DNA from: Candidatus Omnitrophota bacterium
GTDB taxonomy: Bacteria; Omnitrophota; Omnitrophia; Omnitrophales; Aquincolibacteriaceae
Assembly: GCA_903856085.1 (NCBI GenBank)
Contig: CAIOAT010000024.1
Location: 3,180 to 67,179 of the forward strand
Direction of reading: 5' to 3'
DNA length: 64,000 bases
Shown here: positions 10,178 to 33,600 of the stretch, one piece after another
Layout: the number at the start of each line of letters is the position of its first letter
Numbering within the stretch: position 1 is the stretch's first letter
Made by a program: the position numbers and the translations under genes
The notes under the pieces: model-generated
The model's database searches: none
Told to the model about the DNA's origin: nothing
The model's input: the letters and a program-made list of their open reading frames with translations, nothing else

Positions 10178-11839
10178 CTAGGCGGGCTTGTCCTTGTTCG
10201 TGTTTTCCGATGACACTACCTTCTCAGAACCCTTCAACCCCGGAGCGGCATCCGTTGCAGCCGTTTTTTTCTGGGACTGATCGTCTTTTGACTGGTTATT
10301 CTTCCCGTCAACTTTGGCACCCGCAGGCTGTCCCTGCGAATCCACCGTAGTAACTGTTACAAAAAAGAGCGTTTCAACTTTTTGAGTACTTGGATTCGCC
10401 GATGAGGATGGATTTTTCGATCTAAACAATTTACCCACCAACGGAATATCCCCGAAAAATGGAACCTTATCTTCTTTAATACCCGTTTGATCCGTCAACA
10501 AACCGCCGATAGCGATCGTTTGTCCGCTTTGAATCAATACCTGTGTTTTTGCTTTAGTCGTATCAAATCGAGGCGCTTGTATCTGACCGGCACCAAAATC
10601 CTGGTTAAGCCCCACAGAACTCACTTCTGGGCTCAGATCGACTAAAATTTCTTCCGCGGAATTGATATGCGGCGTTACATTCAACACCACTCCCGTATTC
10701 CGATAATTAAAACCTGTGATCACCATGCTCCCCGTCTGCTCATTTCTCTCAAAGCTGGGGATGGGAATCTCCTGGCCGACCTGGATCGTCGCTGTCTGAT
10801 TATTCAAAACAACGACTCGGGGGTTGGAAACCACCTTCGTATTGACCCTTGTTTCCAAGAGACTCAATATCGCAGAAAAACTTGAGAAGTCCAATGTTCC
10901 AAAAGCGAATGACCCGCCGGTTGCCTCTGCTGGCGGCATCGGAAAAGTCCTGTTTTCTCCAGGGTACGGACTTGTCGTGCTAGTAGTTGTAGTCGTGCCT
11001 GAAGTTGTTGCAGATGTCGAAGTGCTCCCAGACAACGCAGGGAAAAAGCTCCGATAATCGCTCGTAGGACCCTGCATAAACGGAAATGTCGTTGGCCTCG
11101 TAGCCCCCTTAGTAAGCCCCCCTACAACATTCCAATCAATACCAAGTTTTTCCGTATTGGAAAGATCCGTCTTCACGATTTTCGAATCAATAAAAGCTTG
11201 GGAGGTAACTTTATCGAGTTTTTTGATCACTTCTCCGATGCGGTAAAGGTTGGTCGGAATATCGGTCACGACGACCATATTGGTGCGTTCCGAGGGCTTC
11301 ACCTTCCCGCGTTCACTCAACATGTCCATGATCGAGGCTTGGATCTCGGTGGCTTTCGAATAATTCAGGATGAAGGTCTTTGTCTCGACAGGTTCAAGCT
11401 TCATTTTGTCACGGGTCGTCACACGGATGATATTGCCGTCCCTCTCATAGACGTAATCGTAGGTCCTCAAGATCACCTCGAGCGCCTTTTCCCAGGGCAC
11501 ATTGTCGAGTCGCACAGTGACAAGACCGGTGACTTCCGGGCCGGTCACAATATTGACATTGCTTTTCAGACTCAGCACGCGCAACACACTCCCGATATCA
11601 GCGTCCTTAAAATCAAGACTGATCGTATCATTCCCGACTACTGGGGCAGAAGGTGCAATCACGACCGGGGCAAGGACGGCCTTAGCGGCAGGTGCGGATG
11701 GCGCGGGCGGCACAGAAGCCTTCTGTGTCACAGCGTTCGGAGTCGGGTCTGCGGCAGAGACAACGCTCGTCACGCCCAAAAGACACAGCACACCCATCAA
11801 AAGAATAAGATTATAGATTGGTCGTTTCATGAAGTTCAC
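10178..11839 (-). CDS. pilQ: Type IV pilus secretin PilQ
   Basis: 553 aa; signal peptide, N-domains, Thr/Ser-rich linker, C-terminal secretin domain (VLIQSGQTIAIGGLLTD ... VPFFGDIPLVGKLF). Confidence 0.8.
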   Translation of the reverse strand: MNFMKRPIYNLILLMGVLCLLGVTSVVSAADPTPNAVTQKASVPPAPSAPAAKAVLAPVVIAPSAPVVGNDTISLDFKDADIGSVLRVLSLKSNVNIVTGPEVTGLVTVRLDNVPWEKALEVILRTYDYVYERDGNIIRVTTRDKMKLEPVETKTFILNYSKATEIQASIMDMLSERGKVKPSERTNMVVVTDIPTNLYRIGEVIKKLDKVTSQAFIDSKIVKTDLSNTEKLGIDWNVVGGLTKGATRPTTFPFMQGPTSDYRSFFPALSGSTSTSATTSGTTTTTSTTSPYPGENRTFPMPPAEATGGSFAFGTLDFSSFSAILSLLETRVNTKVVSNPRVVVLNNQTATIQVGQEIPIPSFERNEQTGSMVITGFNYRNTGVVLNVTPHINSAEEILVDLSPEVSSVGLNQDFGAGQIQAPRFDTTKAKTQVLIQSGQTIAIGGLLTDQTGIKEDKVPFFGDIPLVGKLFRSKNPSSSANPSTQKVETLFFVTVTTVDSQGQPAGAKVDGKNNQSKDDQSQKKTAATDAAPGLKGSEKVVSSENTNKDKPA

Positions 11840-11863
11840 TCGGCCTCCATCATATCATAAAAC

Positions 11864-12229
11864 CTATGTTTTTTCCTCTTTCCTTATCCAAAGCGTCTTT
11901 TCTTCTCCATTCGCCGAGATCACGACATGGTCCCTTAGGATTTTGACGACTTTCGCGTCTCCGACGGCCTCACCCGTCTGATAGGTCTTTCCGTTCAGGA
12001 TGGCCATCGATTGCGCTCCCGGATCATAAATGATGCCCTCGAGGTTGACTCCCAAAGAGGATGCCGTCACCGAAACATCCTCTGCCGTAAGCGGCACGAA
12101 AGGGTCTCGACGTTTACCGGAATCATAAGCGATTTCTTCCGCCCGAAGCGAGCCACACAGCGTCAAAAACAAAAAAAACAAGGCTAGGAACTTTAGAGCT
12201 CCACAATATTTGCCGTCACTTTTTGGCAT
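11864..12229 (-). CDS. pilP: Pilus assembly protein PilP-like
   Basis: 121 aa; signal/lipoprotein N-terminus, DPFVPL motif, beta-rich C-terminus. Position between pilO and pilQ. Confidence 0.5.
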   Translation of the reverse strand: MPKSDGKYCGALKFLALFFLFLTLCGSLRAEEIAYDSGKRRDPFVPLTAEDVSVTASSLGVNLEGIIYDPGAQSMAILNGKTYQTGEAVGDAKVVKILRDHVVISANGEEKTLWIRKEEKT

Positions 12230-12875
12230 GTCCCGCTCCCGTCGCCGACGCGACCTGTGGCGGTGCTTTGAGGATCGCCCAAAGCTTCAGCTCCGCGACA
12301 TGCCGATCCGGCGTTTTTTCCGCCGGCATGATTTCAATGCTCCGAATCCTCAAAAGTTTCCCGTAGGACTCGATACGGCTCGCCAGACTTCCAAGATCAT
12401 GATAACCGCCTTGCACCGTAAATTCATAACCGCTCGGCTGATATTTCAAGTGATACGGTGCTGCAAAAACCGCTTTCTCAGTCAAAGGTTTGGAGGCCAG
12501 CACATCCACGCGCGACTCACTTGCCATTTTCGAAACCCGTCCTAAAAGAAGGCCCATATCCTGGGCTGTAAAAACACGCGCGCGGGTCTTTTCAATGAGC
12601 GAGCCGAATACATTCTGGTCCTCTTCCCAACCCAACCGCTTCTGGTTCAGGGCATTGATCTGGCGGATCTGAGCTTCCATACTTTGGATATCGCGCCGTA
12701 GCAAAGGACGTTCAATCCACGCCGGAATAATCAAAAAAACAACCATCAGAAAAAAAACCACCGCACACGAAAGGACGATCAACCATGTTCTTTTATCGAC
12801 ACTTTTCACGAAGGCTATAACATCGGCAGAGGTCCATTGGTTGAACGGTTTCATGGTTTTTGGGTCACTCCCCAT
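12216..12875 (-). CDS. pilO: Type IV pilus assembly protein PilO
   Basis: 219 aa; single TM, coiled coil, C-terminal ferredoxin-like region. Operon position after pilN. Confidence 0.6.
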   Translation of the reverse strand: MGSDPKTMKPFNQWTSADVIAFVKSVDKRTWLIVLSCAVVFFLMVVFLIIPAWIERPLLRRDIQSMEAQIRQINALNQKRLGWEEDQNVFGSLIEKTRARVFTAQDMGLLLGRVSKMASESRVDVLASKPLTEKAVFAAPYHLKYQPSGYEFTVQGGYHDLGSLASRIESYGKLLRIRSIEIMPAEKTPDRHVAELKLWAILKAPPQVASATGAGHAKK

Positions 12876-13429
12876 TCAAGATTTGCGGCAAAAGCGGTTC
12901 CTGCAATCTTTTCTGAGGATTCCTTGGAAGTCGTCAACGCAACCGAGGTCTGAGGCGGCAATTTTGTTCTCAGTTTCTGGAAATACTCCTCGATCTGTTC
13001 AATGCCCGTCTGTGTTCGGGATGCCAACACCACGCCCTTCAAGGTCAACCGGCATCCCTCACCTTCCCGTTCCGCTTTGAGTTCCGTGAGCCATCCCTTC
13101 GGCGGCAAGAACTCGCTCACCCAGAAAAGCATCTGCGTCATAGATTCCGTATTGAGCACGTTCTTCTCCAGAAAATCTTTTTCACCCTTCATTTCAATTT
13201 CGATCTTGGTCTCCATGGCCTTCAGCTGTGACATGGAGGGATTCAGCTTCACCCATTCCTTTTGCACATTTTTATAAGCTGAGCGAGCCCTGAGATAGTC
13301 CCCATAGAAAAAAAACGTCATAAGAAGAAAAAGCACTCCTGCCAAAAGGGCGAACGGAATATACGGAATACGCGTCGCGGTCGCTTTCCCTTTCCGGAGC
13401 TCCTGGGGCAAAAGGTTGATCTTGATCAT
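12851..13429 (-). CDS. pilN: Type IV pilus assembly protein PilN
   Basis: 192 aa; N-terminal INLLP motif (MIKINLLPQELRK) then TM segment. Confidence 0.7.
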   Translation of the reverse strand: MIKINLLPQELRKGKATATRIPYIPFALLAGVLFLLMTFFFYGDYLRARSAYKNVQKEWVKLNPSMSQLKAMETKIEIEMKGEKDFLEKNVLNTESMTQMLFWVSEFLPPKGWLTELKAEREGEGCRLTLKGVVLASRTQTGIEQIEEYFQKLRTKLPPQTSVALTTSKESSEKIAGTAFAANLEWGVTQKP

Positions 13430-14523
13430 TCGTCGCGAAGCCCCAGACCCAGAGGCACGGGCAAGAGCGACTCATGGGTTTTAAGAAGTTCAGGATCCAC
13501 GTCCGGAGCCCATTTTATCTTTGAAAGAATGTCCATACTCACCACCGGGATCTGCAGCCCTTCGCTCAGCGCCTTCAAAACCACGGGGTGAGACACCCCG
13601 CCGCTAAGAAAAAGCTTTGTGACAGGCCTCGCTTGCCCGGACTGATCATGGTAGTAGTCGAAGGAAACGCGCAGATCCCCGATCAACCCTTCAAGACTTT
13701 CCTTGATCGCTTGCGTCTGATCAAGCGTCAGAGTTTCATTTTTCTCGAAAAGCTTTTCGATCTTTTCGTCTAAAAGATCGGAACGGGTCTTGAGCCGTTT
13801 GTGAAGATCGAAAGTCCCGTAAGAAATATCACGGACAAAACGGGGTTTTCCATCACGGACGATCCCAAGGGTCGAGGTCTCAGTGCCAAGATCTAAAAGG
13901 CCGACATGTCCCGCGAAATCTTCAGGATGGAAATATTCCAATGCGGCCATCACCGAAAGAATGCTGACATCCACCAACGACAAGCGGCATTCCAGATTTC
14001 GAAAAATCTCAAGCGTCGGCTCAAGTTCCTGCCGCTTCACGACAACAAGCATTACTTCCATCTTCTCGCCATCATCGGTTTTGATGCCTTCCTCCACCAC
14101 TCCAAAATCGAGCACTACATCGTTAAGCTCAAAAGGAATATATTGTTCCGCTTCGTATTTCATGGCGCTCCGGAGATCTTCAACCTTCATCTTGGGAAAA
14201 CGGATGAATCGGATCACGACTCCATGCCCCTTGAGAGCCACACGAACTCCATCTTTTCGGAATTTTTTTCCGTCCAAAAACGGCTTGAGAACCAATGAAG
14301 GTTTCTGATCCTTGGGAGCATTCTTAATAATATCGATGCGATGGACAAAAAGGTGGTCAGGTCCTTTTTCAAGTTCCAAAAGGACCGTCTGCATCCGGCC
14401 AAGATCACACACGGTAACCTTGGTAGGGATCGTTTTTTTCTGCAGGAGCTTCGATGAAAATCCTCTAAAAAGGCCGGAAAGCTGTTGACTCAATGGAAGC
14501 CGCTTGCTGGGATCGTTACTCAT
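13426..14523 (-). CDS. pilM: Type IV pilus assembly protein PilM (actin-like ATPase fold)
   Basis: 365 aa; actin/FtsA-like motifs (VCDLG..., LLDLGTETSTLGIV..., LFLSGGVSHP). Precedes pilN. Confidence 0.8.
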   Translation of the reverse strand: MSNDPSKRLPLSQQLSGLFRGFSSKLLQKKTIPTKVTVCDLGRMQTVLLELEKGPDHLFVHRIDIIKNAPKDQKPSLVLKPFLDGKKFRKDGVRVALKGHGVVIRFIRFPKMKVEDLRSAMKYEAEQYIPFELNDVVLDFGVVEEGIKTDDGEKMEVMLVVVKRQELEPTLEIFRNLECRLSLVDVSILSVMAALEYFHPEDFAGHVGLLDLGTETSTLGIVRDGKPRFVRDISYGTFDLHKRLKTRSDLLDEKIEKLFEKNETLTLDQTQAIKESLEGLIGDLRVSFDYYHDQSGQARPVTKLFLSGGVSHPVVLKALSEGLQIPVVSMDILSKIKWAPDVDPELLKTHESLLPVPLGLGLRDE

Positions 14524-14626
14524 AGGTGAGAGATTAGCAGAAAATCTTCAAAAAAAAAGGCAAAAAAATCTACGTTGATCGTGGAAACAAATCGGGTTCG
14601 AAAACACCTTTTTCTATTTCTCATCG

Positions 14627-15100
14627 TCATCCTGTAATCGGAGTTCCAGCCGAACAGCCATCGGCAGCAGCCACAGGAATGGTCGCTGTCCCATCAACTG
14701 TAGAGCCCGTGACAACACCGGTCTGGTCGATACAATACGTATTGTTTGCCGCATTCGCGACAGGTGTGGCTAACAAAGAAAACGTACCGTCACCCACAAG
14801 ATAGCTCAAGACGAACCCATGCTTGGTTCCGCCCTCGACCCAAGAAGGGTCCAGATACGGAGGAGACACCCCTGTCAAAGCTAGGATATTGGCCGGAAAG
14901 GCCGGAGGATTCTGCACCGCACGATAACTTTCGCAAGCATGGCTGAATGTTTTCAGTTCTGACTTGACGGCACCTTCATTAGCATTGACCCTCGCCCGCA
15001 GGAGATTGGGAATGGCGATAGCGGCCAAAATCCCAATGACCGCAACTGCGATCATGATCTCAACAAGAGTAAACCCCCGTCGGGTACGCTCAAGAAACAT
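14627..15100 (-). CDS. Type IV pilin (minor pilin or second PilA paralog)
   Basis: Prepilin leader MFLERTRRG | FTLVEIMIAVAVIGILAAIAIPNL (G-1, F+1, E+5). Start placed at the Met of the leader; the ORF-track extension to 15142 is not needed. Confidence 0.8.
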   Translation of the reverse strand: MFLERTRRGFTLVEIMIAVAVIGILAAIAIPNLLRARVNANEGAVKSELKTFSHACESYRAVQNPPAFPANILALTGVSPPYLDPSWVEGGTKHGFVLSYLVGDGTFSLLATPVANAANNTYCIDQTGVVTGSTVDGTATIPVAAADGCSAGTPITG

Positions 15101-15217
15101 GGCATCTCCCATTTTAAAAGCCTGCGCACATTCAATTCTCAAGACAATTTACGGCAAGAATTGCGATTCCCCGCAGCATTTTCAGCAAGGTAGAATGAAG
15201 CAGTCGCTGCGATCCCC

Positions 15218-15260
15218 TAAAATAAAAAACCCACCCTGCCGCTCCCGGCAGGGTGGGTCA
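15218..15260 (-). terminator. Rho-independent terminator after the major pilin gene
   Basis: Perfect 13-bp stem ACCCACCCTGCCG / CGGCAGGGTGGGT with a 4-nt loop. On the minus strand it is followed by a TTTTTTATTTT tract. Confidence 0.7.
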
Positions 15261-15287
15261 GAAAAAACTTAAAAAACACTGAATCAA

Positions 15288-15743
15288 CTAGCCAGCAATC
15301 GCAGTACCACCACCAGCACAGCCTGTCGCCGGACCCGTCAGAGCGGTTGCCTTCATCACAATGACGCCGGTCTGGTCAACACAATAATAATTGACCGCAG
15401 CGTTTGCAATCGGGGTTGCGAGCGCCGCGAACGTCTGCGCTGCACCGGTAAGCACTATGTTGTAACCATGCTTCGCTGCCTTAAACGTGGCATCCACATA
15501 CGGAGGAGTCGCATCAGCCAAAGCATCGATGTCCGCAGGATAGGTTGGCGTAACCTGCGCCGCACGATAGCTTTCGGCAGCAGAGCTAAGCGTTCTCAGA
15601 TCCGACTTAATCGCACCTTCGTTGGCGTTCATACGAGCACGCATAAGATTGGGAATGGCAATAGCAGCCAAAAGCCCAATGATAGCAACGACGATCATGA
15701 TCTCAACAAGCGTGAAACCCCTTTTATTCAATTGGATAAACAT
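15288..15743 (-). CDS. pilA: Type IVa major pilin PilA
   Basis: 151 aa; leader MFIQLNKRG | FTLVEIMIVVAIIGLLAAIAIPNL. Perfect RBS AGGAGG 6 nt upstream. Own upstream intergenic region (190 nt) and downstream terminator. Confidence 0.85.
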   Translation of the reverse strand: MFIQLNKRGFTLVEIMIVVAIIGLLAAIAIPNLMRARMNANEGAIKSDLRTLSSAAESYRAAQVTPTYPADIDALADATPPYVDATFKAAKHGYNIVLTGAAQTFAALATPIANAAVNYYCVDQTGVIVMKATALTGPATGCAGGGTAIAG

Positions 15744-15933
15744 GTTATTCCTCCTGTTTCTATGTTTGCTTCTGCCTACTATTAGCTTAAACTACCTTAA
15801 ATGATACGACAATCCCAACAAGAACTAAACTAGTTTTTTTGATATCCAAGTTACACATCCTATAACTTTAACAAGCATTCATGTGAACCCTTAGACAGTT
15901 TTCCACAGGATTGTCCAGCCAAGGACTGCTTCC

Positions 15934-17172
15934 TTATTTGATCGCCTGGGTAAGCGTAAGGATGGGAAGAAACATGGCTATCACAATGCCGCCGATCACA
16001 ACCCCAAGAAAAGCAACGATGAGCGGCTCAATTAAGGAAGTCAGCCCGGAAACCGCGGTATCCACCTGGGTATCATAAAAGTCCGCGATCTTTGTGAGCA
16101 TCTCTTCCAATTCTCCGGTCTCCTCCCCAATCGCGATCATACGAACGACCATCGAGGGAAAGATTTCGTTTTTTTCAAGCGGGCCGGCGATGCTTTCCCC
16201 GCGTTTGACAGAGCCCATAAGATCCGTGATGACTTTTTCGATGCGAGCATTCCCTGAAGTTCGAGAAACGATCTCCAAAGCCGCAAGGATCGCCACACCG
16301 CTACGCAACAACGTGGAAAGCGTGCGCGCAAATTTACTGATCGCTACCTTCAAAATAATCGGACCAAAAATGGGCATGCGAAGAGTAAAAGAATCCCAGG
16401 GCAAACGGCCCAACGGAGAGCTGATGAATTTCCGGAACAGAAAAACACCTCCGCCCAGGACAGCGAGAATCCACCACCAGTTGACCGCAAGATAATTGCT
16501 GATAGTAATCAGGATCTGCGTCGGCATGGGCAGCTTCGCCCCCAGGCCTTCAAAGATCGTCGCGAACTTCGGGATCACAAAGGCCAGCATGAAGAACGTG
16601 ATCATGAAAGCCATGATCGAAACGGCCGTCGGATACATCACCGCAGATTTAACCTTTTTTTGAAGCGCGCTGGATTTTTCAAAATATTGGGCCACGCGGT
16701 CCAGGATCTCTTGCAACTTCCCGCTCATCTCACCCGCGCGCACCATGTGAATAAAAAGCGCCGAAAAAACCTTTTGGTGCGCCTGCATGGCCTCAGAAAA
16801 ACTTTTACCAGTCTGCACGTCACTATGCATCCTCCAAAGAATCTTTCGAAATTTCTCCTTATCCACCTGCCCGGCGAGGATGTCTAGGGCCTGGATCAAA
16901 GGGATCCCCGCCGCGACAAGCGTAGCCATCTGCCTTGAAAAAATCACGAGGTCGTCCAGTTTGATGCCTCCGGATTTTCCCTGCCGAATCTTGGGGACTG
17001 TCCCCTTCTGAACACTCAGCATAGAAGATCCTTTTTTGACCTGCTCCACCCGAACAACCAGATAGTCCTGCGCCTTCAGCTGACGAACAAGATCTTGAGC
17101 ATCCTGGGCGTCCTGAACGCCCTTCAGATCTTTTCCCGACTTATCCTTGACCCAATATTCGAACGATGGCAT
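15934..17172 (-). CDS. pilC: Type IV pilus platform protein PilC (GspF family)
   Basis: 412 aa; two GspF-family repeats with three TM segments. Confidence 0.85.
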   Translation of the reverse strand: MPSFEYWVKDKSGKDLKGVQDAQDAQDLVRQLKAQDYLVVRVEQVKKGSSMLSVQKGTVPKIRQGKSGGIKLDDLVIFSRQMATLVAAGIPLIQALDILAGQVDKEKFRKILWRMHSDVQTGKSFSEAMQAHQKVFSALFIHMVRAGEMSGKLQEILDRVAQYFEKSSALQKKVKSAVMYPTAVSIMAFMITFFMLAFVIPKFATIFEGLGAKLPMPTQILITISNYLAVNWWWILAVLGGGVFLFRKFISSPLGRLPWDSFTLRMPIFGPIILKVAISKFARTLSTLLRSGVAILAALEIVSRTSGNARIEKVITDLMGSVKRGESIAGPLEKNEIFPSMVVRMIAIGEETGELEEMLTKIADFYDTQVDTAVSGLTSLIEPLIVAFLGVVIGGIVIAMFLPILTLTQAIK

Positions 17173-17177
17173 ATATT

Positions 17178-18872
17178 TTACTCCTGACTTGAAACGCGAA
17201 GCACTTCCTCAAGCGTGGTCACCCCAGACTTGAAGAGTCCTAGGGCGTTCTCGAAGAGGGTTTCCATACCCTTTTCAACGGCAACCTGGTGAATAACATT
17301 ACTCGATTTTTTTTGGATCACAAGCTCTCGGATATCCGGATCCACGAGCAGCACCTCACTCGCACCGGTCCTTCCGAAATATCCAGTCATGTTGCACTTG
17401 ATACAACCCTTCCCACGGAAGGGCGCGATCTTATCCAATTCCGATTTAGAAAGCTTACAACGAAGGAGCACATCCGCCGGAATGGTGGCCGGCGACCGAC
17501 AGCTCGGGCAGATTTTTCTGAGTAGACGCTGCGCCCCGACGCATACCACTGAGGACGCGATCAAAAAAGGCTCCACGCCCATATCCATAAGACGCGTCAT
17601 CGCGCCGGCGGCGCTGTTCGTATGAAGCGTGCTAAACACCAGATGCCCGGTAAGCGCGGCCTTCACCGCGATATCCGCAGTCTCCGAGTCGCGGATCTCC
17701 CCCACCAACACGATGTCCGGACTTTGTCGAAGCAAGGCACGAAGACCACTCGCGAACGTCAGCCCGATCTCTGGCTGCACCTGAGTCTGAGTAATCCCTT
17801 CGACTTGATATTCGATAGGATCCTCCACGGTCATTAAATTCTTTTGCGGCGTGTTCAGTGAATTCAGGATCGAATAAAGCGTCGTGGATTTTCCGCTACC
17901 TGTTGGCCCGGTCACCAGGATCATCCCATAAGGCTTCTTGACCGCTTCGGCAAGAGCGCGGGTCGGCTTCTCCGTAAAGCCGAGCTTATCAAGTCCCGCC
18001 CGGATCCCGCTTCGGTCCAAGACGCGCAGCACCAGCTTCTCGCCGAAATAGGTCGGCAACACAGAGACACGAAAATCAATCTGCCGGTCCTTGAGCAGCA
18101 ACCGGAACCGCCCATCCTGGGGCAGACGTTTTTCAGTAATATCCAAGAGAGAAATGATCTTGGTACGCGCCACGAGAGCCGGATAAAGCTCCAATGTATG
18201 GGAGAACGATTCTTTTAAAGCTCCATCGACACGGTACCGGATACGAAATTCTTTTTCATAAGGCTCAAAGTGAATATCGGAAGCGCGGGCTTTCAGCGCT
18301 TTTTCAAGAATAAAATTGACCATCTTGATGACCGGCGCGTCATCCACGCCGACCTGTACGACGGAGGACGCCTCCTTCTCATCTTCATTCACAAGTTCCA
18401 GGCTATCGGCATCCTTCTCAGAGATAAATTCAGAAAAATTTTTACTTTCTGCGTAATAGTCGTCCACGGCGGCAGCAATCCGGGCGGGAGTGGCCAACAC
18501 AAGGTTCACGTCACATCCTGTCAGATGCTTGATATCATCGAAGGTCCGTAATTTAAACGGATCGCTTGTAGCCACCGTCACAAGCTTTCCGATGCGCCCC
18601 ACCGGAAAAGCCTGATGCTGTTCGATGAATTTCCGGGGAAGCATCCGCAGGACTTCATTGTCGAACTGCATCCCGTGAAGGTTCAGCGTGGGGATCTCAA
18701 GCTGAGCGCTCAAAAAATCCATAACCTCTTCTTCCGGAAGGATCTTTTCTTCGAGAATAATTTTTATAGTGCTTTCATTGCGTTTCTGAGCGACCTGGCC
18801 CAAGCGATCACACTCCTCTTCAGAAAGCCCCAGTTTTTTCACCCACGTCCGAACGATCTTTTTGTCGATCAT
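17178..18872 (-). CDS. pilB: Type IV pilus assembly ATPase PilB/GspE family (paralog 2)
   Basis: 564 aa; Walker A GPTGSGKSTTLYS, Asp box, Walker B and His box, tetracysteine motif CPSC...CIKC, N-terminal GSPII domain. Length indicates PilB-type, not PilT. Confidence 0.85.
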   Translation of the reverse strand: MIDKKIVRTWVKKLGLSEEECDRLGQVAQKRNESTIKIILEEKILPEEEVMDFLSAQLEIPTLNLHGMQFDNEVLRMLPRKFIEQHQAFPVGRIGKLVTVATSDPFKLRTFDDIKHLTGCDVNLVLATPARIAAAVDDYYAESKNFSEFISEKDADSLELVNEDEKEASSVVQVGVDDAPVIKMVNFILEKALKARASDIHFEPYEKEFRIRYRVDGALKESFSHTLELYPALVARTKIISLLDITEKRLPQDGRFRLLLKDRQIDFRVSVLPTYFGEKLVLRVLDRSGIRAGLDKLGFTEKPTRALAEAVKKPYGMILVTGPTGSGKSTTLYSILNSLNTPQKNLMTVEDPIEYQVEGITQTQVQPEIGLTFASGLRALLRQSPDIVLVGEIRDSETADIAVKAALTGHLVFSTLHTNSAAGAMTRLMDMGVEPFLIASSVVCVGAQRLLRKICPSCRSPATIPADVLLRCKLSKSELDKIAPFRGKGCIKCNMTGYFGRTGASEVLLVDPDIRELVIQKKSSNVIHQVAVEKGMETLFENALGLFKSGVTTLEEVLRVSSQE

Positions 18873-20638
18873 GGGGCACCGCCTCCGGGCTTCGCGCCGA
18901 CATCCGCGATCGTGACGCGAAAAACCTCATCGAGCGATGTTTCACCCGCCAGCGCCTTTTGGATCGCTGATTCTCGCAAGGTGTTCATCCCGTGCTCCCG
19001 GGCCCTCTCTTTAATGAGATCCGCGGACGCTCCTTGCATGATCATATCCAGAATATCCGGTTTCATTTCGAGGATCTCAGTGATCACGCTCCTGCCCTGA
19101 TAGCCCAGCTGGCGACACTGCGAACAGCCCTTGGCTTTCCAAAGCTGTATCTTTTTTTTCGGGTCTAAATTCAGGAATTTATACATATCAGGTTCGAGAT
19201 CGTATGCGACGCGACAACGCGGGCAGAGACGACGCACCAGCCGCTGGGCCGAGATCATTAGAACGGTCGACGCGATCAGGAACGGCTCAAGTCCAAGATT
19301 CGCCATGCGGGTCACGGAACTCACCGCGTCGTTGGTGTGGAGCGTGCTCAGAACAAGGTGGCCCGTCAGCGCGGCCTTCACGGCGATATCGAGCGTTTCC
19401 GCATCACGGATCTCTCCGATCAAAATAATGTCGGGATCCTGGCGCAAGATCGAACGTAGAGCCGCGGGAAATGTCAGCCCTATGGATTCGCGGACATTGA
19501 CCTGATTGATCCCGGACATCTGATACTCCACAGGATCCTCAACCGTTGTAATATTTACCTGCGGGGAATCCAAGTATTTGAGGACCGAATAAAGCGTAGT
19601 TGTTTTTCCGCTTCCGGTCGGTCCGGTCACAAGGATCATCCCATGCGGCTTCTTGGCCGAAGCCCGTATCACGCTCTGCTCCGTCTCTGTAAAACCGAGC
19701 TTTTGGATATCATGCGACTGAGCCCCAGTATCCAAAATGCGCAAGCAGACTTTCTCGCCGAAGCTGGACGGCAAGATAGAAACGCGCATGTCCACTTCCC
19801 GACCCTGCGTCCTGACTTTGAAACGGCCATCCTGGGGAACGCGGTGTTCCGCGATATTGAGCTGGCTCATGATCTTAACGCGGGAAACGATGGCGGCGCC
19901 AAAACTCTTTTGCGGTTTTACGATCTCCTCAAGGATTCCGTCAATGCGCATACGGATCCGGACAAAACCTTCCCAGGGTTCAATAAAAATATCACTCGCC
20001 CGGCGACGCACCCCCTCCACGAGCACCATATTGACAAGTTTCACGACCGGCGCCTGATTGGCCTGTTCCATGAGATCCGCGACCTTCTGCTGCTTATCCA
20101 GGGTCGCCTCACTTTCAACCATATTGGCAAGACTTACGAGATCTTCGGCACCCTCATCCAAAACAGGCTCTTCCGAGACACTGACCTCTCCCTGATAGGA
20201 TTTCTGTATGTATTCCTTGAGCTGAGAGTATTCCGCCACCGAAGTCCTGATGCGTTTTCCGGTAATCGCCTGAAGTTCATCCAAAACTTTTATGTTGGTG
20301 GGATTCGCCACCGCAACCGTCAAAGTCTTTTCAAGTAAGGATATCGGGAGGCACCCATAAGCCTCTGCGGTTTTCTTGGAAACGAGCTTTAGAACTTCTT
20401 TGTCAATGATCAGCATTTTGAGACTGACGAGACGATAACCGTATTCCTCACAAAGAACGCTCACGAGTTTTTTTTCGTCGCATTTCCCGGCCTGTTGAAG
20501 TATGTCTAGAAAATGCAGTTTGTTGGAGCTCTTGACCTGTTCCTGGAGTGCTTGTTGGAGATCGGCAGAGCTGACGACTCCCGCCCGCAGAAGAGCTTCT
20601 TTAAGATCCGGCAATGACGTTCGCATGGGTTCTGTCAT
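18869..20638 (-). CDS. pilB: Type IV pilus assembly ATPase PilB/GspE family (paralog 1)
   Basis: 589 aa; Walker A GPTGSGKTTTLYS, tetracysteine CPRC...CSQC, N-terminal GSPII-like domain. 4-nt overlap with paralog 2. Confidence 0.85.
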   Translation of the reverse strand: MTEPMRTSLPDLKEALLRAGVVSSADLQQALQEQVKSSNKLHFLDILQQAGKCDEKKLVSVLCEEYGYRLVSLKMLIIDKEVLKLVSKKTAEAYGCLPISLLEKTLTVAVANPTNIKVLDELQAITGKRIRTSVAEYSQLKEYIQKSYQGEVSVSEEPVLDEGAEDLVSLANMVESEATLDKQQKVADLMEQANQAPVVKLVNMVLVEGVRRRASDIFIEPWEGFVRIRMRIDGILEEIVKPQKSFGAAIVSRVKIMSQLNIAEHRVPQDGRFKVRTQGREVDMRVSILPSSFGEKVCLRILDTGAQSHDIQKLGFTETEQSVIRASAKKPHGMILVTGPTGSGKTTTLYSVLKYLDSPQVNITTVEDPVEYQMSGINQVNVRESIGLTFPAALRSILRQDPDIILIGEIRDAETLDIAVKAALTGHLVLSTLHTNDAVSSVTRMANLGLEPFLIASTVLMISAQRLVRRLCPRCRVAYDLEPDMYKFLNLDPKKKIQLWKAKGCSQCRQLGYQGRSVITEILEMKPDILDMIMQGASADLIKERAREHGMNTLRESAIQKALAGETSLDEVFRVTIADVGAKPGGGAP

Positions 20639-20688
20639 GATCGCCTGCTCGTCAGAGCTGCCTGACGGCTTATTTTAAAAATGAACTT

Positions 20689-20793
20689 TTCCATCAGGGC
20701 GCCTGATTTTTCTATTAAAAAAAATGCCGGGAAATCAGCGCAGTCCTGATGGCCCCTTGGAGAAATAAACAAATCCATCAGGGCGCCTCGTGA
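20689..20793. promoter_or_regulatory. Repeated palindromic motif upstream of the pilB start
   Basis: TCCATCAGGGCGCCT occurs twice (20689-20706 and 20773-20793). The first copy contains the palindrome ATCAGG-GCG-CCTGAT. A third related palindrome ATCAG-N7-CTGAT lies at 20733-20751. Confidence 0.3.
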
Positions 20794-21221
20794 TAGATAA
20801 AATAGATTGCATTCAGGATCTCAGAGATCCGGGAAAGAAACACCTGGGGAATGCGGCCCGTCAGCGTCCGGATCTTTTCAACAACTGCGTCCCCCAAGGG
20901 ATCCGCCACCGCGACATAAACCTTCTTCGCATCACAATCGAACGCCACCACCATATTCTCGTGGCAGAAATCCGCATTCAGCATACTAGCCATGTCGGGA
21001 TTGATCGCATAGTTCTTGAGCGGAAGATACGGGATTTTGAACTGTTTGCCGAGAGCACCAATCAAATGCTCCTCGTCCACGAACTTCTTCTCAATGAGGA
21101 TCCTTCCGATCAAGCCGCCTTTTTCCTTCTGATAGGCAAGGGCTTCCTCCAGATGAGCTTTGGATAAAAGCCCATCTTCGATCAAGATCTCTCCGATTTT
21201 TCTCTTTATTTTTGGAATCAT
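20778..21221 (-). CDS. Standalone MshEN-like (T2SS-E N-terminal) domain protein, predicted c-di-GMP receptor
   Basis: 147 aa; tandem 24-residue motifs RKIGEILIEDGLLSKAHLEEALAYQ and LIGRILIEKKFVDEEHLIGALGKQ separated by 5 residues. They fit the c-di-GMP-binding signature RLGxxLLxxG(I/F)(L/V)xxxxLxxxLxxQ. Confidence 0.55.
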   Translation of the reverse strand: MIPKIKRKIGEILIEDGLLSKAHLEEALAYQKEKGGLIGRILIEKKFVDEEHLIGALGKQFKIPYLPLKNYAINPDMASMLNADFCHENMVVAFDCDAKKVYVAVADPLGDAVVEKIRTLTGRIPQVFLSRISEILNAIYFIYHEAP

Positions 21222-26919: not shown

Positions 26920-27642
26920 TCATTTCATTTCAAGTTCACGAATGGCGGTCACAACCACTGAAGGATTTTGTGGCTTCCCAAGATAAACGGAAGCCCCCGC
27001 GGCAAGACTCTTTTCCCGAAAATCCATCCCGGAATAGGTATAAACGATCAGCGGAACCGTCGTGCAACTCCGTATATCCTTGATCAGTACCTCCGCCTCG
27101 ACAGCATGCTGCTGATATTCCATGGCAATATAATCAGCAGGCTGTTTCGCCCAATATTCCTTAAAACCGCTCATGCCCTTGATAAAAAAAACCTGAAAGC
27201 GCTCATCACGCAATTCTTTGGCGACCGCCTGCGCCAGCGGGCTTCCCTCGGAATCCGCGAGATAGACAGTCTTTCTCTTTTTCAAAAGCGCCTTCCTGAC
27301 TTCGCCAAGAACAAGAGACATTTCGAACGGTTTATTAACAAACCCGTCCACAGCAATCCCTTCCATCAGACTCTCAAGCTCGCCGCGACCCGTCATGACG
27401 ATCACCGGCATCCGGGGTTTTCCATGTTTTGTAGAAACGGCGCGCAGAAAATCGAAGCCGTCTTTTCCCGGCATCCGAATATCCAGCATCACCAGATTGA
27501 CAGACCCCTGCTCTAACGCCTTGAGAGCTTTATCCACACTCGGCGCCGTCAGGACCACGTAACCTTCTTCCTCCAAATGGAGCTTCAGAAGATCTGCGAT
27601 CGCTCGTTCATCATCGACAATCAGTATTTTTTCTCCGCTCAT
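26920..27642 (-). CDS. Response regulator with N-terminal receiver and a second degenerate receiver-like domain, no DNA-binding output
   Basis: 240 aa; REC motifs (ILIVDDE ..., LVMLDIRMPGKDG, K near residue 104). The second half is receiver-like but lacks the canonical acidic pocket. Confidence 0.7.
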   Translation of the reverse strand: MSGEKILIVDDERAIADLLKLHLEEEGYVVLTAPSVDKALKALEQGSVNLVMLDIRMPGKDGFDFLRAVSTKHGKPRMPVIVMTGRGELESLMEGIAVDGFVNKPFEMSLVLGEVRKALLKKRKTVYLADSEGSPLAQAVAKELRDERFQVFFIKGMSGFKEYWAKQPADYIAMEYQQHAVEAEVLIKDIRSCTTVPLIVYTYSGMDFREKSLAAGASVYLGKPQNPSVVVTAIRELEMK

Positions 27643-27657
27643 AATACCTCCCTGGGA

Positions 27658-30408
27658 TTAACGACCCAACACGGACCAAACTTTCACGGAAAGTTGCCCG
27701 TGACTGAAGGGTTTTTGAAGGAAATCCGCGCCTTCCACGTCCGCAATCATTTGTTCTGAATACCCGGACATAAAGATCACTTTCAATTCAGGGAACATTT
27801 CCCGGACTCGGAGCACAAGATCTTTGCCATTCATTTTCGGCATGGTCAAATCGGTGAGCAAAAGATCAAACTTCCTCCCCGGATCTTCCGCAAGCATTCC
27901 AAGCGCCTCATCCCCTCCGCGCGCCGCGCGGACATCGTAGCCTCTTTCGCGAAGAACCTGCAGAGCGAACTCTCGAACCTGGTTTTCATCTTCGACGAGA
28001 AGGATCTTACCCCGCCCCTGCGGCAGTACTTCCAAAACCGATCTTTCCTCAAGGCCGGGCTCCGCCTTAGCTTTGGGAAGATAAATCCTAAAAGTAGTCC
28101 CTTTCTCAAGCTGACTTTCAAAGGAAATCGCACCACCTGCCTGCTCCACGATTCCATAAACGATTGAAAGCCCCAACCCTGTGTTCATCCCTTTTTTCTT
28201 AGTGGTAAAGAAAGGTTCAAAAATACGCTTCCTTAAAGCGGGATCGATCCCAACGCCAGAATCTTTGACCGTTATCCTGATAAACTCACCTTCTCTTTTT
28301 CGAGAAGGTCTGAGTTCTTCCTGGATATCTTCCATACGCACAAGATCCGTCGTAACCGTCAACACCCCGCCTTTCGGCATCGACTCCCGCGCATTCACAA
28401 AAAGATTCAAAAACACCTGCTCCATCTGCCCAGGGTCCATTTTCACGTAGCCAACATCCGCCGCGTGGTCCACCTTCAACTCGACATCGTCCCCCAGCAA
28501 TCGGGCGATCATACTCTTCATTTTCACGGTCGCTTCTGAGACCTTGATCAGCTGCGGCTTTGGAGCCTCTTTCCGGCTAAGATTGAGCAATTGCCTGACG
28601 ATCGTCGCCGCACAATCGCCCGCATCCCGTATCTGGTGTACTTTGTCAAAATAAGGATCATCCGGCTTCATCTTTGTCATGAGATAACCGCTATAGCCAT
28701 TGATCACAGTCAACATATTGTTAAAATCATGTGCAATCCCGCCCGCCAACCGACCCACCGCCTCCATTCTGAGTGAATGCCGGAGTTGCTCTTCGAGCTG
28801 GAGCCGGTAGGTGATGTCCTCTTTGACCGCGACGAAGTACGCGATCTTACCCTCATCATCACGGATCGGGGCAATGTGAGCCAATTCCGTGTATATCTCA
28901 CCGTTCTTCTTTTTATTGGAAAACTGTCCTTGCCAATCTTTCCCCTGGAGAAGCGTGTCCCAAAGATCTCTATAAAACTCCACCGGCTGTTCCCCGCTCT
29001 TTAAGATCCTTGGATTCTGGCCCAAAGCCTCCGCGGAAGAATAACCCGTGACCTCAGAAAATTTCTGGTTCACGTATTCGATCTTGCCGTCCTTATCGGT
29101 GATCACGATACAGCTCGGACTTTGCTCCACAGCCTCAGACAGTTGCCGGATCTTACTTTCTATTTTCTTAAGCTCGGTCAAATCTCTCCAGAGACAATGG
29201 AGAATATTCTTGCCATGAACAACCACGGGTGTGAGGGAAACTTCCACCGGAAAATCCTCCCCATCGGCTTTTCTGTGAACCCACTCAAATCGGTGAAACC
29301 CCTGCTCAAAAGCAAGCTTCATCATCTCATTGGCCTTAACAAAAGAACTCTGCCCGTCGGGTTGGACAGGAGGCGACAGCTCCGCGGGATGCTTCATCAA
29401 AAATTCTGCCCGGGTGGAATATCCGAGCATGTGAGCTGTGGCCTCGTTGCAATCCACAAAATTCTCACCGTCAATAAGAAGGATGGCATCTCGGGAAACA
29501 TAAAGAACGTCCATGAATCGCTTTTCACTCTCCTGCAATGCTGCCTCCGCGCGCTTACGCTCGGTGATATCTTGGGAGATCCCTGTGAGCCGCACAGCCT
29601 TGTTGTTTACGTCTCGCTGGATATGCCCCCGGGATAAAATAACGCGCGATTCTCCATCCTGCCGGGTGATTCGCAACTCCAACTCATAATCTTCTCCCGT
29701 CTGCTCGGATTTCTTGATCGCAGCCGTCATTGTTTTCCAGTCCTCCGGATGCGTCCTCTTTTCGCATTCCTGAAAAGTTGGCACTGCCCCCTCAGGATCC
29801 ATGCCATAGATACGAAACATTTCATCGGAAAAGGAGACCTGTTCGGTTTGAAGATCAAGCACCCAACTCCCCACATGAGAAACGCGCTGCGCGTCCTTAA
29901 GCTGAATCTCGCTTGCCGTGATTGCTTCCTCGGCACGCTTTCGAAGGGTCATGTCCATAATAACCCCAACAATCCCTTGCACTTCCCCGGACGCCCCGGT
30001 AAAAGTTGCCTTATGAAACATGATGCTTCTGGACTCACCCGCCGCATTCGTGATCGCTGCCTCATAGACTTGAATGCCCGGAAGAGCAAAAAGATTCGCA
30101 TCTTTCTCAATATAAATTTTGGCGATCTCGGGCGAAAAAAGCTCCTCAACTTTTTTCCCAATAAGCTCTTTTTGCGATATTCCAAAAAACGCTTCGAAGG
30201 CCCTGTTGCAGCCGATATAAACCCCCGAGACGTCCTTATAGAAAACCGGAACGGGGATAGAATCCATGAGTTTCTGTAAGAACAGGGATTTCTCCAAGCT
30301 CACCGCCTCGATCAATTTGCGCTCTTGAATTTCCCTGTCCAGATTTTCGATGGAAGTAGTTTTATTCTTAATATTTTGAGCCATCGCTTCAAAATCTCTG
30401 GCAAGCAA
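27658..30408 (-). CDS. Hybrid sensor histidine kinase: HAMP remnant, multiple PAS, HisKA, HATPase_c, C-terminal receiver
   Basis: 916 aa; at least four PAS-like modules, H-box AHDFNNMLTVINGY, G-boxes GVGIDPALRKRIFEPFFTTKKKGMNTGLGLSIV, C-terminal REC (ILLVEDE ... LLTDLTMPKMNGKDL). The ORF-track start 30408 is a TTG; the first in-frame ATG is at 30384. Confidence 0.85.
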   Translation of the reverse strand: MLARDFEAMAQNIKNKTTSIENLDREIQERKLIEAVSLEKSLFLQKLMDSIPVPVFYKDVSGVYIGCNRAFEAFFGISQKELIGKKVEELFSPEIAKIYIEKDANLFALPGIQVYEAAITNAAGESRSIMFHKATFTGASGEVQGIVGVIMDMTLRKRAEEAITASEIQLKDAQRVSHVGSWVLDLQTEQVSFSDEMFRIYGMDPEGAVPTFQECEKRTHPEDWKTMTAAIKKSEQTGEDYELELRITRQDGESRVILSRGHIQRDVNNKAVRLTGISQDITERKRAEAALQESEKRFMDVLYVSRDAILLIDGENFVDCNEATAHMLGYSTRAEFLMKHPAELSPPVQPDGQSSFVKANEMMKLAFEQGFHRFEWVHRKADGEDFPVEVSLTPVVVHGKNILHCLWRDLTELKKIESKIRQLSEAVEQSPSCIVITDKDGKIEYVNQKFSEVTGYSSAEALGQNPRILKSGEQPVEFYRDLWDTLLQGKDWQGQFSNKKKNGEIYTELAHIAPIRDDEGKIAYFVAVKEDITYRLQLEEQLRHSLRMEAVGRLAGGIAHDFNNMLTVINGYSGYLMTKMKPDDPYFDKVHQIRDAGDCAATIVRQLLNLSRKEAPKPQLIKVSEATVKMKSMIARLLGDDVELKVDHAADVGYVKMDPGQMEQVFLNLFVNARESMPKGGVLTVTTDLVRMEDIQEELRPSRKREGEFIRITVKDSGVGIDPALRKRIFEPFFTTKKKGMNTGLGLSIVYGIVEQAGGAISFESQLEKGTTFRIYLPKAKAEPGLEERSVLEVLPQGRGKILLVEDENQVREFALQVLRERGYDVRAARGGDEALGMLAEDPGRKFDLLLTDLTMPKMNGKDLVLRVREMFPELKVIFMSGYSEQMIADVEGADFLQKPFSHGQLSVKVWSVLGR

Positions 30409-30607: not shown

Positions 30608-33600
30608 TTGGGATTTATGAAACAAACTCCTGCAAGTCAGAAAATGCAGCACGCCGCATCCTCCCCAAGGGAATTTCCCAGGAGCTCCTGGCTTACGCCG
30701 AAGCAAATTCCCGCGAAGTCGATGCAGAGACTTATCCTCACCTGCTTTTTTATCTCCGGAGCGTGCGGGCTCGTCTACGAGGTCGCCTGGCTCCGTGTCA
30801 TGGGACTCATTTTCGGCAATACCACGTTCGCCACGAGCACGGTACTGGCCGGCTACATGGCCGGTCTCGGCCTCGGAGCACTTTGGTGGGGTAAACGGAT
30901 TGACAAGGGCGGCAACCCGGTCAGAATCTATGCAAATCTAGAGGTTGGCATCGGTGTCTTCGCGTTGCTCACGCCGCTTATTTGGATACTTATTGACCTT
31001 TTAACGATCGGTTTTTACCGGTTCGTTTCTCCCGCATTTTTTTCCGCTCTTTTATTCAAATTCCTGCTCGCGTTCACAGCCCTCCTCATCCCGACGTTTC
31101 TCATGGGTGCGACACTCCCGGTCCTCTCAAAATACTTCGTCACCAAAGACGATGAGATTGCAAAACAAGTGGGACTTCTCTACGGGCTTAATACCTTGGG
31201 AGCCGTCCTGGGCGTACTCTTCAGCGGATTCATTGCACTTCAAACCTTCGGCGTCTGGCAAACGGTTTACCTGACCGGTTTTTTCAATCTGGTTATTTTT
31301 TGTCTCTGCCGGCGTTTCTTCGCTTCTCCCGAGGCGAACCCCCCGGTTATAAACAAGAAAATAGCACCTTTAAAAAATCCGGTGAGTCCCTCCCCTTCCG
31401 CCGCAGAGCAATCCTCTTTCTCACCGGCTGTCACATGGATCTTGCTTGCCGCGTTCGCGATCTCAGGCGCCGTCTCCATGATGTACGAGATCGCCTGGAC
31501 GCGCGTACTCGCCATGTCGCTGGGTAGTTCCGTCTATGCCTTCTCGCTCATGCTCGCGACTTTTCTTCTAGGCATTTCCATCGGCAGTTATTTATTCAGT
31601 CGCTTTTCGCATTTCTTCCGGACGAACCTGCAAACCTTCGCGATCCTACAACTGCTAACCGCGCTCTTTGGTCTTGGGGGCATCAACGTCTTTAATGATA
31701 TGCCTTATTATTTCGTCAGGATCTTCGCCGCCTCCCACAACTCCGACTTTTTACTGCAAGTCGGAAGGTTCTTCCTCTGCTCGATTGTCATGCTCCCGCC
31801 AACCCTCATGATCGGCGCCATGTTCTCGTGCTTCATCCACATCCTCCGCCGCTCACGACCTCTCGGAAGCGAGATCGGAGAAGCCTATTTTGCCAACACG
31901 ATCGGCACCATCCTCGGTTCCGTGCTAACAGGATTTTGTATCATTCCGCTCGTGGGAATCCAGCATACGCTTCTAATCGCCGCAGGGCTCAATGCCACAA
32001 TCGGTGCCTTGGCCTTCTTTCTTCAAAAAGAGCGGCTTAATTGGAAGCGTTACAGTATTCTCGCACTGACCGTCCTACTTCTTGCTTTCGGAATTCTCAC
32101 GATTCGCCCATGGAACCAAGGTTTCATCTCAAGCGAGCTGGCCGTCAAACCCGCCCCTGCCATCGGCATGACAAAGAACCAACTGCTCAATTCCATGAAA
32201 GAACAAGAGTTGGTCTTTTACAAGGAAGGACTGAGTGCAACGGTCGCAGTGAAACGGCTCCGCGATGATCTTTCGATGTCGGTCAACGGCAAGATCGACG
32301 CCTCGAATAAAGACACCTTCACACAATTTCTGCTGGGGCATCTTCCGATGGCACTTCACCCGAATCCGAAAAATGTATGCGTGATTGGTCTCGGGAGTGG
32401 TTCGACGGCCGCGGCCGTAGCTTCGTATCCAGTCGAGCACATCGACGTCGTCGAGCTTGAAAAAGAGGTCGTGAAGGCCGCAAGTTATTTCAAGGAATTG
32501 AACCGCAATGTCCTCGCCGACCCGCGCCTGAAAATCCATATCAATGACGGCCGGAATTTCCTCCTCCTCGATCCCACCCGATACGACGTCATTATTTCCG
32601 AGCCTTCGAACCCGTGGATGGCCGGTGTCGCAAACCTCTTTTCAATCGAACATTACAGGACCATGAAAAAGCGACTTGCCCCCGGCGGCATCGTCTGTCA
32701 ATGGCTACACGCTTACAGCATGTCTCCCGAGGATCTTCGCATGATCATCCGGACGTTCTCGGAAGTGTACCCGAACATCAGTCTTTGGACCTCGTATTAT
32801 CCGGATCTGATGCTCATCGGATCGAATGAGCCTCTCACACTTGACATGAAAAATTTCGAGAGGGCCTTCAAGATCCCAACGGTACGCGAAGACCTCGAAC
32901 CCAACGGCATCCGAAGCCCGATGGGATTTCTTTCAAACGCCTGGCTTTTTGATCCGGCCCTGCGGCTTCTAGCCCAAGACGCCAAGATCAACTCGGACAA
33001 TCATCCTTATCTTGAATTCTCTGCACCGCGAAACCTTTATAAAAACACCCTTCTCGAAAACTTTACGCTCCTGAACACACTCCGCAAATTTGAAGAGTTC
33101 CCCAAGGTTAAGGATCTCGAACCTCCGCAGGAAAAAAATGTCCTTTTTTATAATGCCCTGACTCGCGGATATCTTGCCAAACGTTTTAACGCCAATGCCG
33201 AATGGTCCCTGAGCAAAGCTGACAAGATCGATCCGGCAAACCTTGAAACCGCACTTTTAAGCGGCATTTTTTATTATCAGATCGGCGCCAAAGACAAAGC
33301 CAAGGAGATCCTCACGCAGGCGGTCGCAATCAACCCCTCTTCGGCTGAAACACAAGAGTATTTTGGATCAGCACTCCAGGATCTTGGGCAAATCCCCGGG
33401 GCGATCGAGGCTTTTCAAAAGGCTTCGGATCTTGCCCCCGAGAATATCCCCTACCTGGTCACACTCGCAAACGCACTCCTCAAGGCCGATCAAAATTTGC
33501 GGGCGCTTCAATGTTTCAATAAAGCTCTGGCGGCCCGGCCCGATGATTTTGACAGCTGGGTCAAGAAAGCCATGCTCGTCATGAATATGGGAACTTTGGA

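Follow-up and report, generated by a model that had tools for sequence, protein, structure and literature searches.

Two PilB-type ATPases and a separate MshEN protein in a type IVa-like pilus locus of Omnitrophota

Two PilB-type motors in one pilus locus

We analysed a stretch of 64,000 nucleotides from a Candidatus Omnitrophota bacterium (assembly GCA_903856085.1, contig CAIOAT010000024.1, positions 3,180 to 67,179), hereafter the window, which carries on its minus strand, between positions 10178 and 21221, a cluster of type IVa pilus (T4aP) genes with two adjacent genes for PilB-type ATPases, PilB1 and PilB2. Pilus extension is usually credited to one PilB hexamer. From the sequences of this locus and its relatives we consider it rather probable, with modest confidence, that the cluster encodes one T4a-like pilus machine with two extension motors, gated by cyclic di-GMP (c-di-GMP) through a separate MshEN protein.

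The evidence that carries this reading starts with the two ATPases themselves, which are 43% identical over 524 residues. Among solved structures, both come nearest to PilB of Geobacter and of Myxococcus (476-520 bits), followed by GspE (about 400 bits) and PilT (110-128 bits). The E-values of the matches to solved PilB range from 1e-140 to 1e-155. The PilB equivalog TIGR02538 is the top-scoring model for both (618.2 and 639.3 bits), and the scores for the GspE equivalog TIGR02533 (590 and 594.9 bits, cutoff 630.25), for the TfpB model NF053534 (485.8 and 455.6 bits, cutoff 850) and for the PilT/PilU family TIGR01420 (181.5 and 196.1 bits, cutoff 319.1) lie below their cutoffs, far below in the last case. 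Proteins of the PilT/PilU family are about 345 residues long and have neither the first N-terminal domain (N1D) nor the four-cysteine motif (Cys4). Both window ATPases have an N-terminal MshEN domain, the CxxC...CxxC arrangement of four zinc cysteines, and intact Walker, Asp and His boxes, the His box (residues 425-436 of PilB1 and 408-419 of PilB2) reading TGH in each. Across 24 first and 22 second paralogues from related loci, the Walker A lysine, the Asp box, the Walker B motif GEIRD, the second histidine of the His box and the four cysteines are invariant or nearly so. Identity within the first and the second family is also closely matched in N1D (0.35 and 0.35), in the second N-terminal domain N2D (0.58 and 0.59) and in the C-terminal domain (0.70 and 0.72); 115 alignment columns are conserved and identical across both families, and only 4 differences are fixed between them. 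Structure matches, family scores, N-domain and the four cysteines agree with a preliminary description of this locus that both ATPases are of PilB and not of PilT type. That description also named them extension-type motors, and the PilB family features are borne out, from which an extension role would be predicted for both.

The features of the cluster, in the direction of transcription, are as follows.

20778..21221, minus strand: stand-alone MshEN protein, 147 aa, predicted c-di-GMP receptor (PF05157 1.6e-12; NF053729 60.9 bits, cutoff 38)
18869..20638, minus strand: PilB1, PilB-type ATPase, 589 aa, with a degenerate MshEN N-domain (T2SSE 3.3e-139; MshEN 4.7e-18; TIGR02538 618.2 bits)
17178..18872, minus strand: PilB2, second PilB-type ATPase, 564 aa (T2SSE 5.4e-135; MshEN 6.7e-19; TIGR02538 639.3 bits)
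15934..17172, minus strand: PilC platform protein, 412 aa (T2SSF 4.3e-65, two repeats; best NCBIfam matches are PilC models, 413 and 405 bits)
15288..15743, minus strand: major pilin PilA1, 151 aa (N_methyl 4.9e-9; leader MFIQLNKRG, then FTLVEIM; AGGAGG ribosome-binding site upstream)
15228..15259, minus strand: intrinsic terminator 3' of pilA1 (14-bp stem with 10 GC pairs, GGAG loop, then UUUUUUAUUUU as U-tract)
14627..15142, minus strand: second pilin paralogue, maximal open reading frame (ORF) 171 aa (N_methyl 7.4e-9; likely start at 15100 or 15112, giving 157-161 aa)
13426..14523, minus strand: PilM, 365 aa (PilM_2 4.3e-28; TIGR01175 123.9 bits, cutoff 133)
12851..13429, minus strand: PilN-like protein, 192 aa (N-terminal MIKINLLPQE; one transmembrane segment; position kept in relatives)
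12216..12875, minus strand: PilO-like protein, about 212-219 aa (PF04350 18.4 bits, under the cutoff of 22)
11864..12229, minus strand: PilP-like lipoprotein, 121 aa (T2SSC HR-domain 29.3 bits, cutoff 27; signal peptide, LTLC lipobox)
10178..11839, minus strand: PilQ-type secretin, 553 aa, without AMIN domain (Secretin 5.7e-42, Secretin_N, STN; TIGR02515 271.6 bits, cutoff 284.35)

All eleven ORFs of the gene order proposed earlier were recovered on the minus strand, with families backed by Pfam or NCBIfam. The assignments of PilN, PilO and PilP are partly positional: the PilN-like protein has no Pfam match and matches weakly the PilN-like part of Amuc_1101, and the PilO-like orthologues of two relatives (L002 and L004) do match PF04350. 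For the secretin, the PilQ model TIGR02515 is the best-scoring family, yet its score lies just below the subfamily cutoff. The PilB1 and PilB2 genes overlap by 4 bp and a gap of 5 bp separates PilB2 from PilC; the genes from PilM to PilP overlap in series, and PilQ starts 24 bp past PilP. Both prepilins have a leader of nine residues and the cleavage site RG|FTLVEIM (G-1, F+1, E+5), a short class III leader. Of the components expected of a T4aP, the locus contains a PilB-type ATPase, PilC, separate PilM/PilN and PilO/PilP, a secretin and a class III major pilin, but no PilT, PilD or minor pilins.

A different division of tasks would be that one ATPase extends the pilus and the other runs in a mode like that of a type II secretion system (T2SS), exporting proteins with a short pseudopilus. 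The GspE scores come near the PilB scores (590-595 against 618-639 bits), the PilP-like protein matches the HR domain of GspC, the pilins also match GspG, and loci for giant proteins in Omnitrophota have been tied to T2SS-like genes (10.1101/2023.11.21.568195), a giant ORF lying 22 kb from the cluster. We nevertheless regard this as improbable: the window has no GspL or GspM and no minor pseudopilins GspH-K, and does not classify as a T2SS, PilM and PilN are separate genes, which is the T4aP arrangement, and E. coli GspE falls outside both paralogue clades in the tree described below. The T2SS-like system reported beside the giant genes was itself considered as a match for the window locus and rejected, being of a different, RcpC/Tad type.

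The PilB pair is conserved across three locus types of Omnitrophota

The closest homologues of PilB1 carry the annotation Candidatus Omnitrophota or Omnitrophica, and an identical PilB1 protein occurs on metagenomic contigs, the longest of 74 kb. A scan of a genome collection, which was also the source of the broad comparison set from the Planctomycetes-Verrucomicrobia-Chlamydiae (PVC) phyla, gave at least 7 close orthologues among the matches listed. We distinguish three types of Omnitrophota locus, which have in common the module MshEN-PilB-PilB-PilC. Type A is that of the window; it is flanked by housekeeping genes (downstream RNase E/G and RmuC, upstream HhH-GPD glycosylase, LigT, CinA and PgsA/PgpA) and is kept together with these flanks down to 59-61% PilB1 identity, for example on a 1.78-Mb contig (GCA_040767405.1) and on a 539-kb contig. 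In type B (L020, L021, L022, L023) the order is MshEN-PilB-PilB-MshEN-PilC, another stand-alone MshEN gene separating PilC from the second ATPase. Type C (L089, L093-L099, L102-L107) has the order mreBCD-pbp2-rodA, HAMP-GAF-GGDEF, PilT, MshEN, PilB, PilB, PilC, pilins, DUF4900/PilX-like minor pilins and PilM, and here the module always lies downstream of mreBCD-pbp2-rodA. The three types differ in the His box of the second ATPase, which reads TGQ in all type B and type C loci and TGH in type A and in the loci L024 and L062.

We placed the paralogues among reference sequences by neighbour joining on the ATPase core (144 sequences aligned over 333 columns, 100 bootstraps), and they formed two distinct PilB-type clades: the first paralogues of all three locus types group together (bootstrap 93/100), and so do the second paralogues (90/100), with PilT cleanly separated (100/100). 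Moreover, pairwise distances among first paralogues follow those among second paralogues (r = 0.93, 22 loci), and the distance between a first and a second paralogue (p = 0.48) equals that from either of them to the PilB of Proteobacteria or Acidobacteria. Because the paralogues form clades of their own, have diverged together and are this far apart, the sequences indicate that the PilB pair is ancient and has been passed on as a unit. An origin as recent tandem duplicates with identical N-domains, which the preliminary description had named, together with a canonical pilT elsewhere, as what would undo its proposal, is contradicted by the 43% identity and by the separate, Omnitrophota-wide clades. 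The deep backbone of the tree is not resolved (first and second paralogues are exclusive sisters in 15/100 replicates), so the tree does not settle the age and number of the PVC duplications.

Paired PilB genes are also found in other PVC phyla. In Verrucomicrobiota, Kiritimatiellota and Lentisphaerota, the order PilB-PilT-PilB-PilC was found in about 20 loci among the matches listed (L027, L028, L032-L036, L043, L045, L046, L053, L054, L060, L066, L071, L077-L081, L083), and one metagenome-assembled genome of Chthoniobacter flavus (L074) has two adjacent PilB genes with no PilT between them. Like the window, the PilB-PilT-PilB-PilC operons have two full-length PilB-type ATPases and one PilC; unlike the window, they have PilT between the two PilBs and are without the stand-alone MshEN. 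The paralogues of these three phyla fall in clades of their own, so that their duplication may be independent of that in Omnitrophota. In the searchable literature we found no description of PilB-PilT-PilB-PilC loci, and none of PilB genes in tandem, whether from Omnitrophota or from another PVC phylum.

PilT and the question of retraction

In the type C loci, PilT sits directly upstream of MshEN-PilB-PilB-PilC, that is, beside the same pair as in the window, and these short ATPases are true members of the PilT/PilU family (TIGR01420 431-469 bits, cutoff 319). Since PilT co-occurs with both PilBs in the type C loci and in the other PVC phyla, the second PilB, as far as these gene neighbourhoods tell, is not a general substitute for PilT. 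The earlier suggestion that one paralogue took over retraction is consequently unsupported as a general explanation, given PilT beside the same pair, equal constraint on both paralogues and only four fixed differences, and it is weakened for the window's own lineage.

For that lineage we also considered the narrower proposal that, at a locus without PilT, one PilB paralogue works as a retraction or bidirectional motor, comparable to the ATPase CpaF of the Caulobacter Tad pilus, a single bifunctional motor. Searching the 64 kb with both ATPases by tblastn returned only those two and the MshEN gene, hence no third ATPase, and a Pfam scan of the other large ORFs of the window found neither PilT nor a Peptidase_A24 (PilD), in agreement with the preliminary description, which had noted the absence of both. 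All nine Omnitrophota PilT neighbourhoods examined are of the GGDEF-PilT-MshEN-PilB-PilB-PilC type, and these belong to genomes unlike type A in composition (tetranucleotide r no higher than 0.83, compared with 0.95 within the window). The second ATPase of type A moreover keeps the canonical TGH, as opposed to the TGQ of the loci that contain PilT. On the other hand, both paralogues retain the zinc finger and the N-domain that is specific to PilB, their scores for the PilT model are far under its cutoff, neither is accelerated or asymmetrically constrained, and the same pair occurs elsewhere together with PilT; we therefore hold a retraction function for one of them to be unlikely. Elsewhere, the KEGG Orthology tables of Seymour et al. 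list K02669 and K02654 for two species clusters, which are not mappable to the window's lineage, and a 2026 preprint on complete genomes has nothing on pilT.

Pilins, transcription and missing parts

The preliminary description took the cluster for a complete T4aP operon in one transcription unit. Parts are missing and a terminator follows pilA1, so the cluster falls short of a complete operon and is not one transcription unit in the simple sense. The window is without PilD, PilT and minor pilins, a six-frame scan of it having found only the two prepilin motifs; processing of the prepilins would then require a peptidase encoded outside the window. No F-type ATPase was found in the window either, though a 'symbiotic' one has been reported beside T4aP genes in many Omnitrophota. 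The terminator, which is strong and canonical, begins 29 nt past the stop codon of pilA1. A like hairpin lies 3' of the major pilin gene in 12 related loci (L002, L004, L008, L009, L011, L012, L090, L015, L017, L021, L093, L095), and hairpin and U-tract are kept across all three Omnitrophota locus types.

Two motors together with two pilins had also suggested that two different filaments are made through one PilC/PilMNOPQ machine. The window does hold two pilin genes, whose products are 54-59% identical, and the terminator follows the first of them only. Most type A relatives, however, have both motors and one pilin (the six loci L002, L004, L008, L009, L011 and L090), and since the motor pair is universal across the phylum and the second pilin sporadic, this idea fails; we consider it very improbable. 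Instead, PilA1 is predicted to be the one strongly expressed major pilin, with a terminator of its own, and the second pilin would be a lineage duplication.

A separate MshEN protein as candidate c-di-GMP receptor

Over its whole length the 147-aa MshEN protein aligns to the c-di-GMP-binding N-domains of PilF (T. thermophilus), PilB (M. xanthus) and MshE (V. cholerae) in the PDB, and it exceeds the cutoff of the c-di-GMP motif model NF053729. The same model is matched by all 28 of the Omnitrophota stand-alone MshEN orthologues, in which the two glycine/leucine cores are invariant. In the window's motors the motif scores below threshold in PilB1 (27-28.9 bits) and has no match in PilB2, and across the loci it is present in 18/22 N-domains of first paralogues against 9/22 of second paralogues. 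Furthermore, each type C locus examined (the nine PilT neighbourhoods) has a gene for a HAMP-GAF-GGDEF diguanylate cyclase next to the module. Two loci (L024:8122-11560 and L062:6282-9583) have a first ATPase of no more than 408-410 aa, which has lost its N-terminal MshEN domain, and they keep the stand-alone MshEN gene just upstream. Since the motif is conserved in the separate MshEN and weakened in the motors, a cyclase is adjacent, and an N-domain was lost in these two loci, we hypothesise that the 147-aa protein supplies c-di-GMP sensing in trans. A lone MshEN domain is not in itself rare, since about 40 of the best 150 cluster representatives in a library of 1.8 billion proteins have the size of the stand-alone protein.

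The same data could be read as a sign that one paralogue serves chiefly in regulation or as a scaffold, for instance as a c-di-GMP-responsive partner, and is not an independent motor. The unequal retention of the c-di-GMP motif in first and second paralogues, the change from His to Gln in the second-paralogue His box of type B and C loci, and the first ATPases without N-domain would all fit. We find this improbable, as the window's lineage keeps every catalytic motif in both paralogues and the two evolve at equal rates.

A proposed pilus machine with two extension motors

In the machine that we propose, PilC would, by its family matches, be the platform, PilM, N, O and P the alignment complex and PilQ the secretin. 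Two hexameric ATPases of PilB type would serve this one machine, both as assembly (extension) motors on the same PilC/PilM base, and PilB1 and PilB2 may divide the labour, for example between initiation and processive elongation, or may respond to different regulatory inputs. c-di-GMP would be read mainly by the 147-aa MshEN protein, the motif in the motor N-domains being degenerate in PilB1 and lost in PilB2, and retraction, if any, would depend on a PilT encoded elsewhere in the genome.

Several points weigh against this proposal. Both ATPases score under the TIGR02538 equivalog cutoff of 675.65, and there are no minor pilins at the locus. For type A, no PilT or PilD was found in the 64-kb window or within 10 kb on either side in relatives, and protein searches with PilT queries gave no match on the long contigs that carry a type A locus, although the listing of matched contigs is too unreliable for a negative conclusion; a lineage without PilT is possible. 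The TGQ of the other two locus types hints that the paralogues may not always be catalytically equivalent. PilB1 and PilB2 might each form a hexamer of their own or join in a mixed complex, alternatives that sequence does not tell apart, and the proposal as a whole is drawn from sequence.

A further-reaching version, which we put forward only tentatively, is that the two-PilB motor is obligate and ancestral in Omnitrophota, and convergent or shared with that of Verrucomicrobiota, Kiritimatiellota and Lentisphaerota. Here the pair would act as a hetero-oligomer or a relay under a trans-acting MshEN c-di-GMP receptor, and pilus dynamics in the window's lineage, where PilT may be missing altogether, would be explained by the pair as well.

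Other genes of the window

A multi-PAS histidine kinase (916 aa) and a response regulator lie at 26920-30408 on the minus strand, 5.7 kb upstream of the pilus genes, and a 1094-aa spermine-synthase/TPR/MFS-like protein (30608-33892, plus strand) adjoins this histidine kinase region. Further on, a protein of 2320 aa (34393-41355, minus strand) has a C-terminal GH94 supersandwich and catalytic domain and resembles a cyclic beta-1,2-glucan synthase or phosphorylase. The giant ORF mentioned above (43414-63936, minus strand) encodes 6840 aa with scattered Pfam domains only (GNAT, FHA, APH-type kinase and Ham1-like); comparable giant ORFs have been reported in Omnitrophota.

Comparison with known systems

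Two full PilB-type motors thus stand side by side, co-evolving and equally constrained, across a phylum of ultra-small, probably host-dependent bacteria, and the related arrangement in several other PVC phyla suggests that dual-motor extension is widespread and not an oddity. Seymour et al. (PMC10066038) found T4aP clusters in nearly all classes of Omnitrophota and tied them to host attachment, and paired PilBs are not mentioned there. As type IV pili are thought to mediate this attachment (PMC10066038), control of the pilus bears on that lifestyle, and the locus is a natural system for studying what is gained from a second motor and from a c-di-GMP-binding N-domain that is detached from the ATPase.

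In canonical T4aP loci, such as those of Myxococcus and Geobacter, the gene order is pilB-pilT-pilC. The window resembles them in that PilC comes after the ATPases and PilMNOPQ is present; it differs in that a second full-length PilB stands where PilT follows pilB, and in the additional stand-alone MshEN gene. T. thermophilus PilF is the best PDB match of the stand-alone MshEN protein (113 bits over 3 repeats), and here too there are several MshEN/GSPII c-di-GMP-binding domains per motor system. In PilF, however, three such domains are fused to one ATPase, whereas in the window the three are spread over three polypeptides, two of them ATPases. The c-di-GMP receptor MshE of V. cholerae has a tandem 24-residue motif (PMC5013675, cited in PMC11656802). 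The MshE motif is kept in the window's stand-alone protein; in MshE the domain is fused to the ATPase, and here the copy with the best conservation is a separate protein of 147 aa.

The only characterised parallel with two extension motors that we found in the searchable literature is that of PilB and TfpB in Acinetobacter baylyi, whose T4aP needs both for normal extension, and these two may split initiation from processivity (PMC8213720; PMC11656802). As in the window, two phylogenetically distinct PilB-type ATPases there serve one T4aP, PilB and TfpB having diverged about as far as PilB from GspE or MshE (PMC8213720). The tfpB gene is not syntenic with pilC, whereas the ATPase genes of the window overlap and precede pilC. 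A. baylyi also has PilT and PilU, and the inhibitor CpiA where the window has its MshEN partner.

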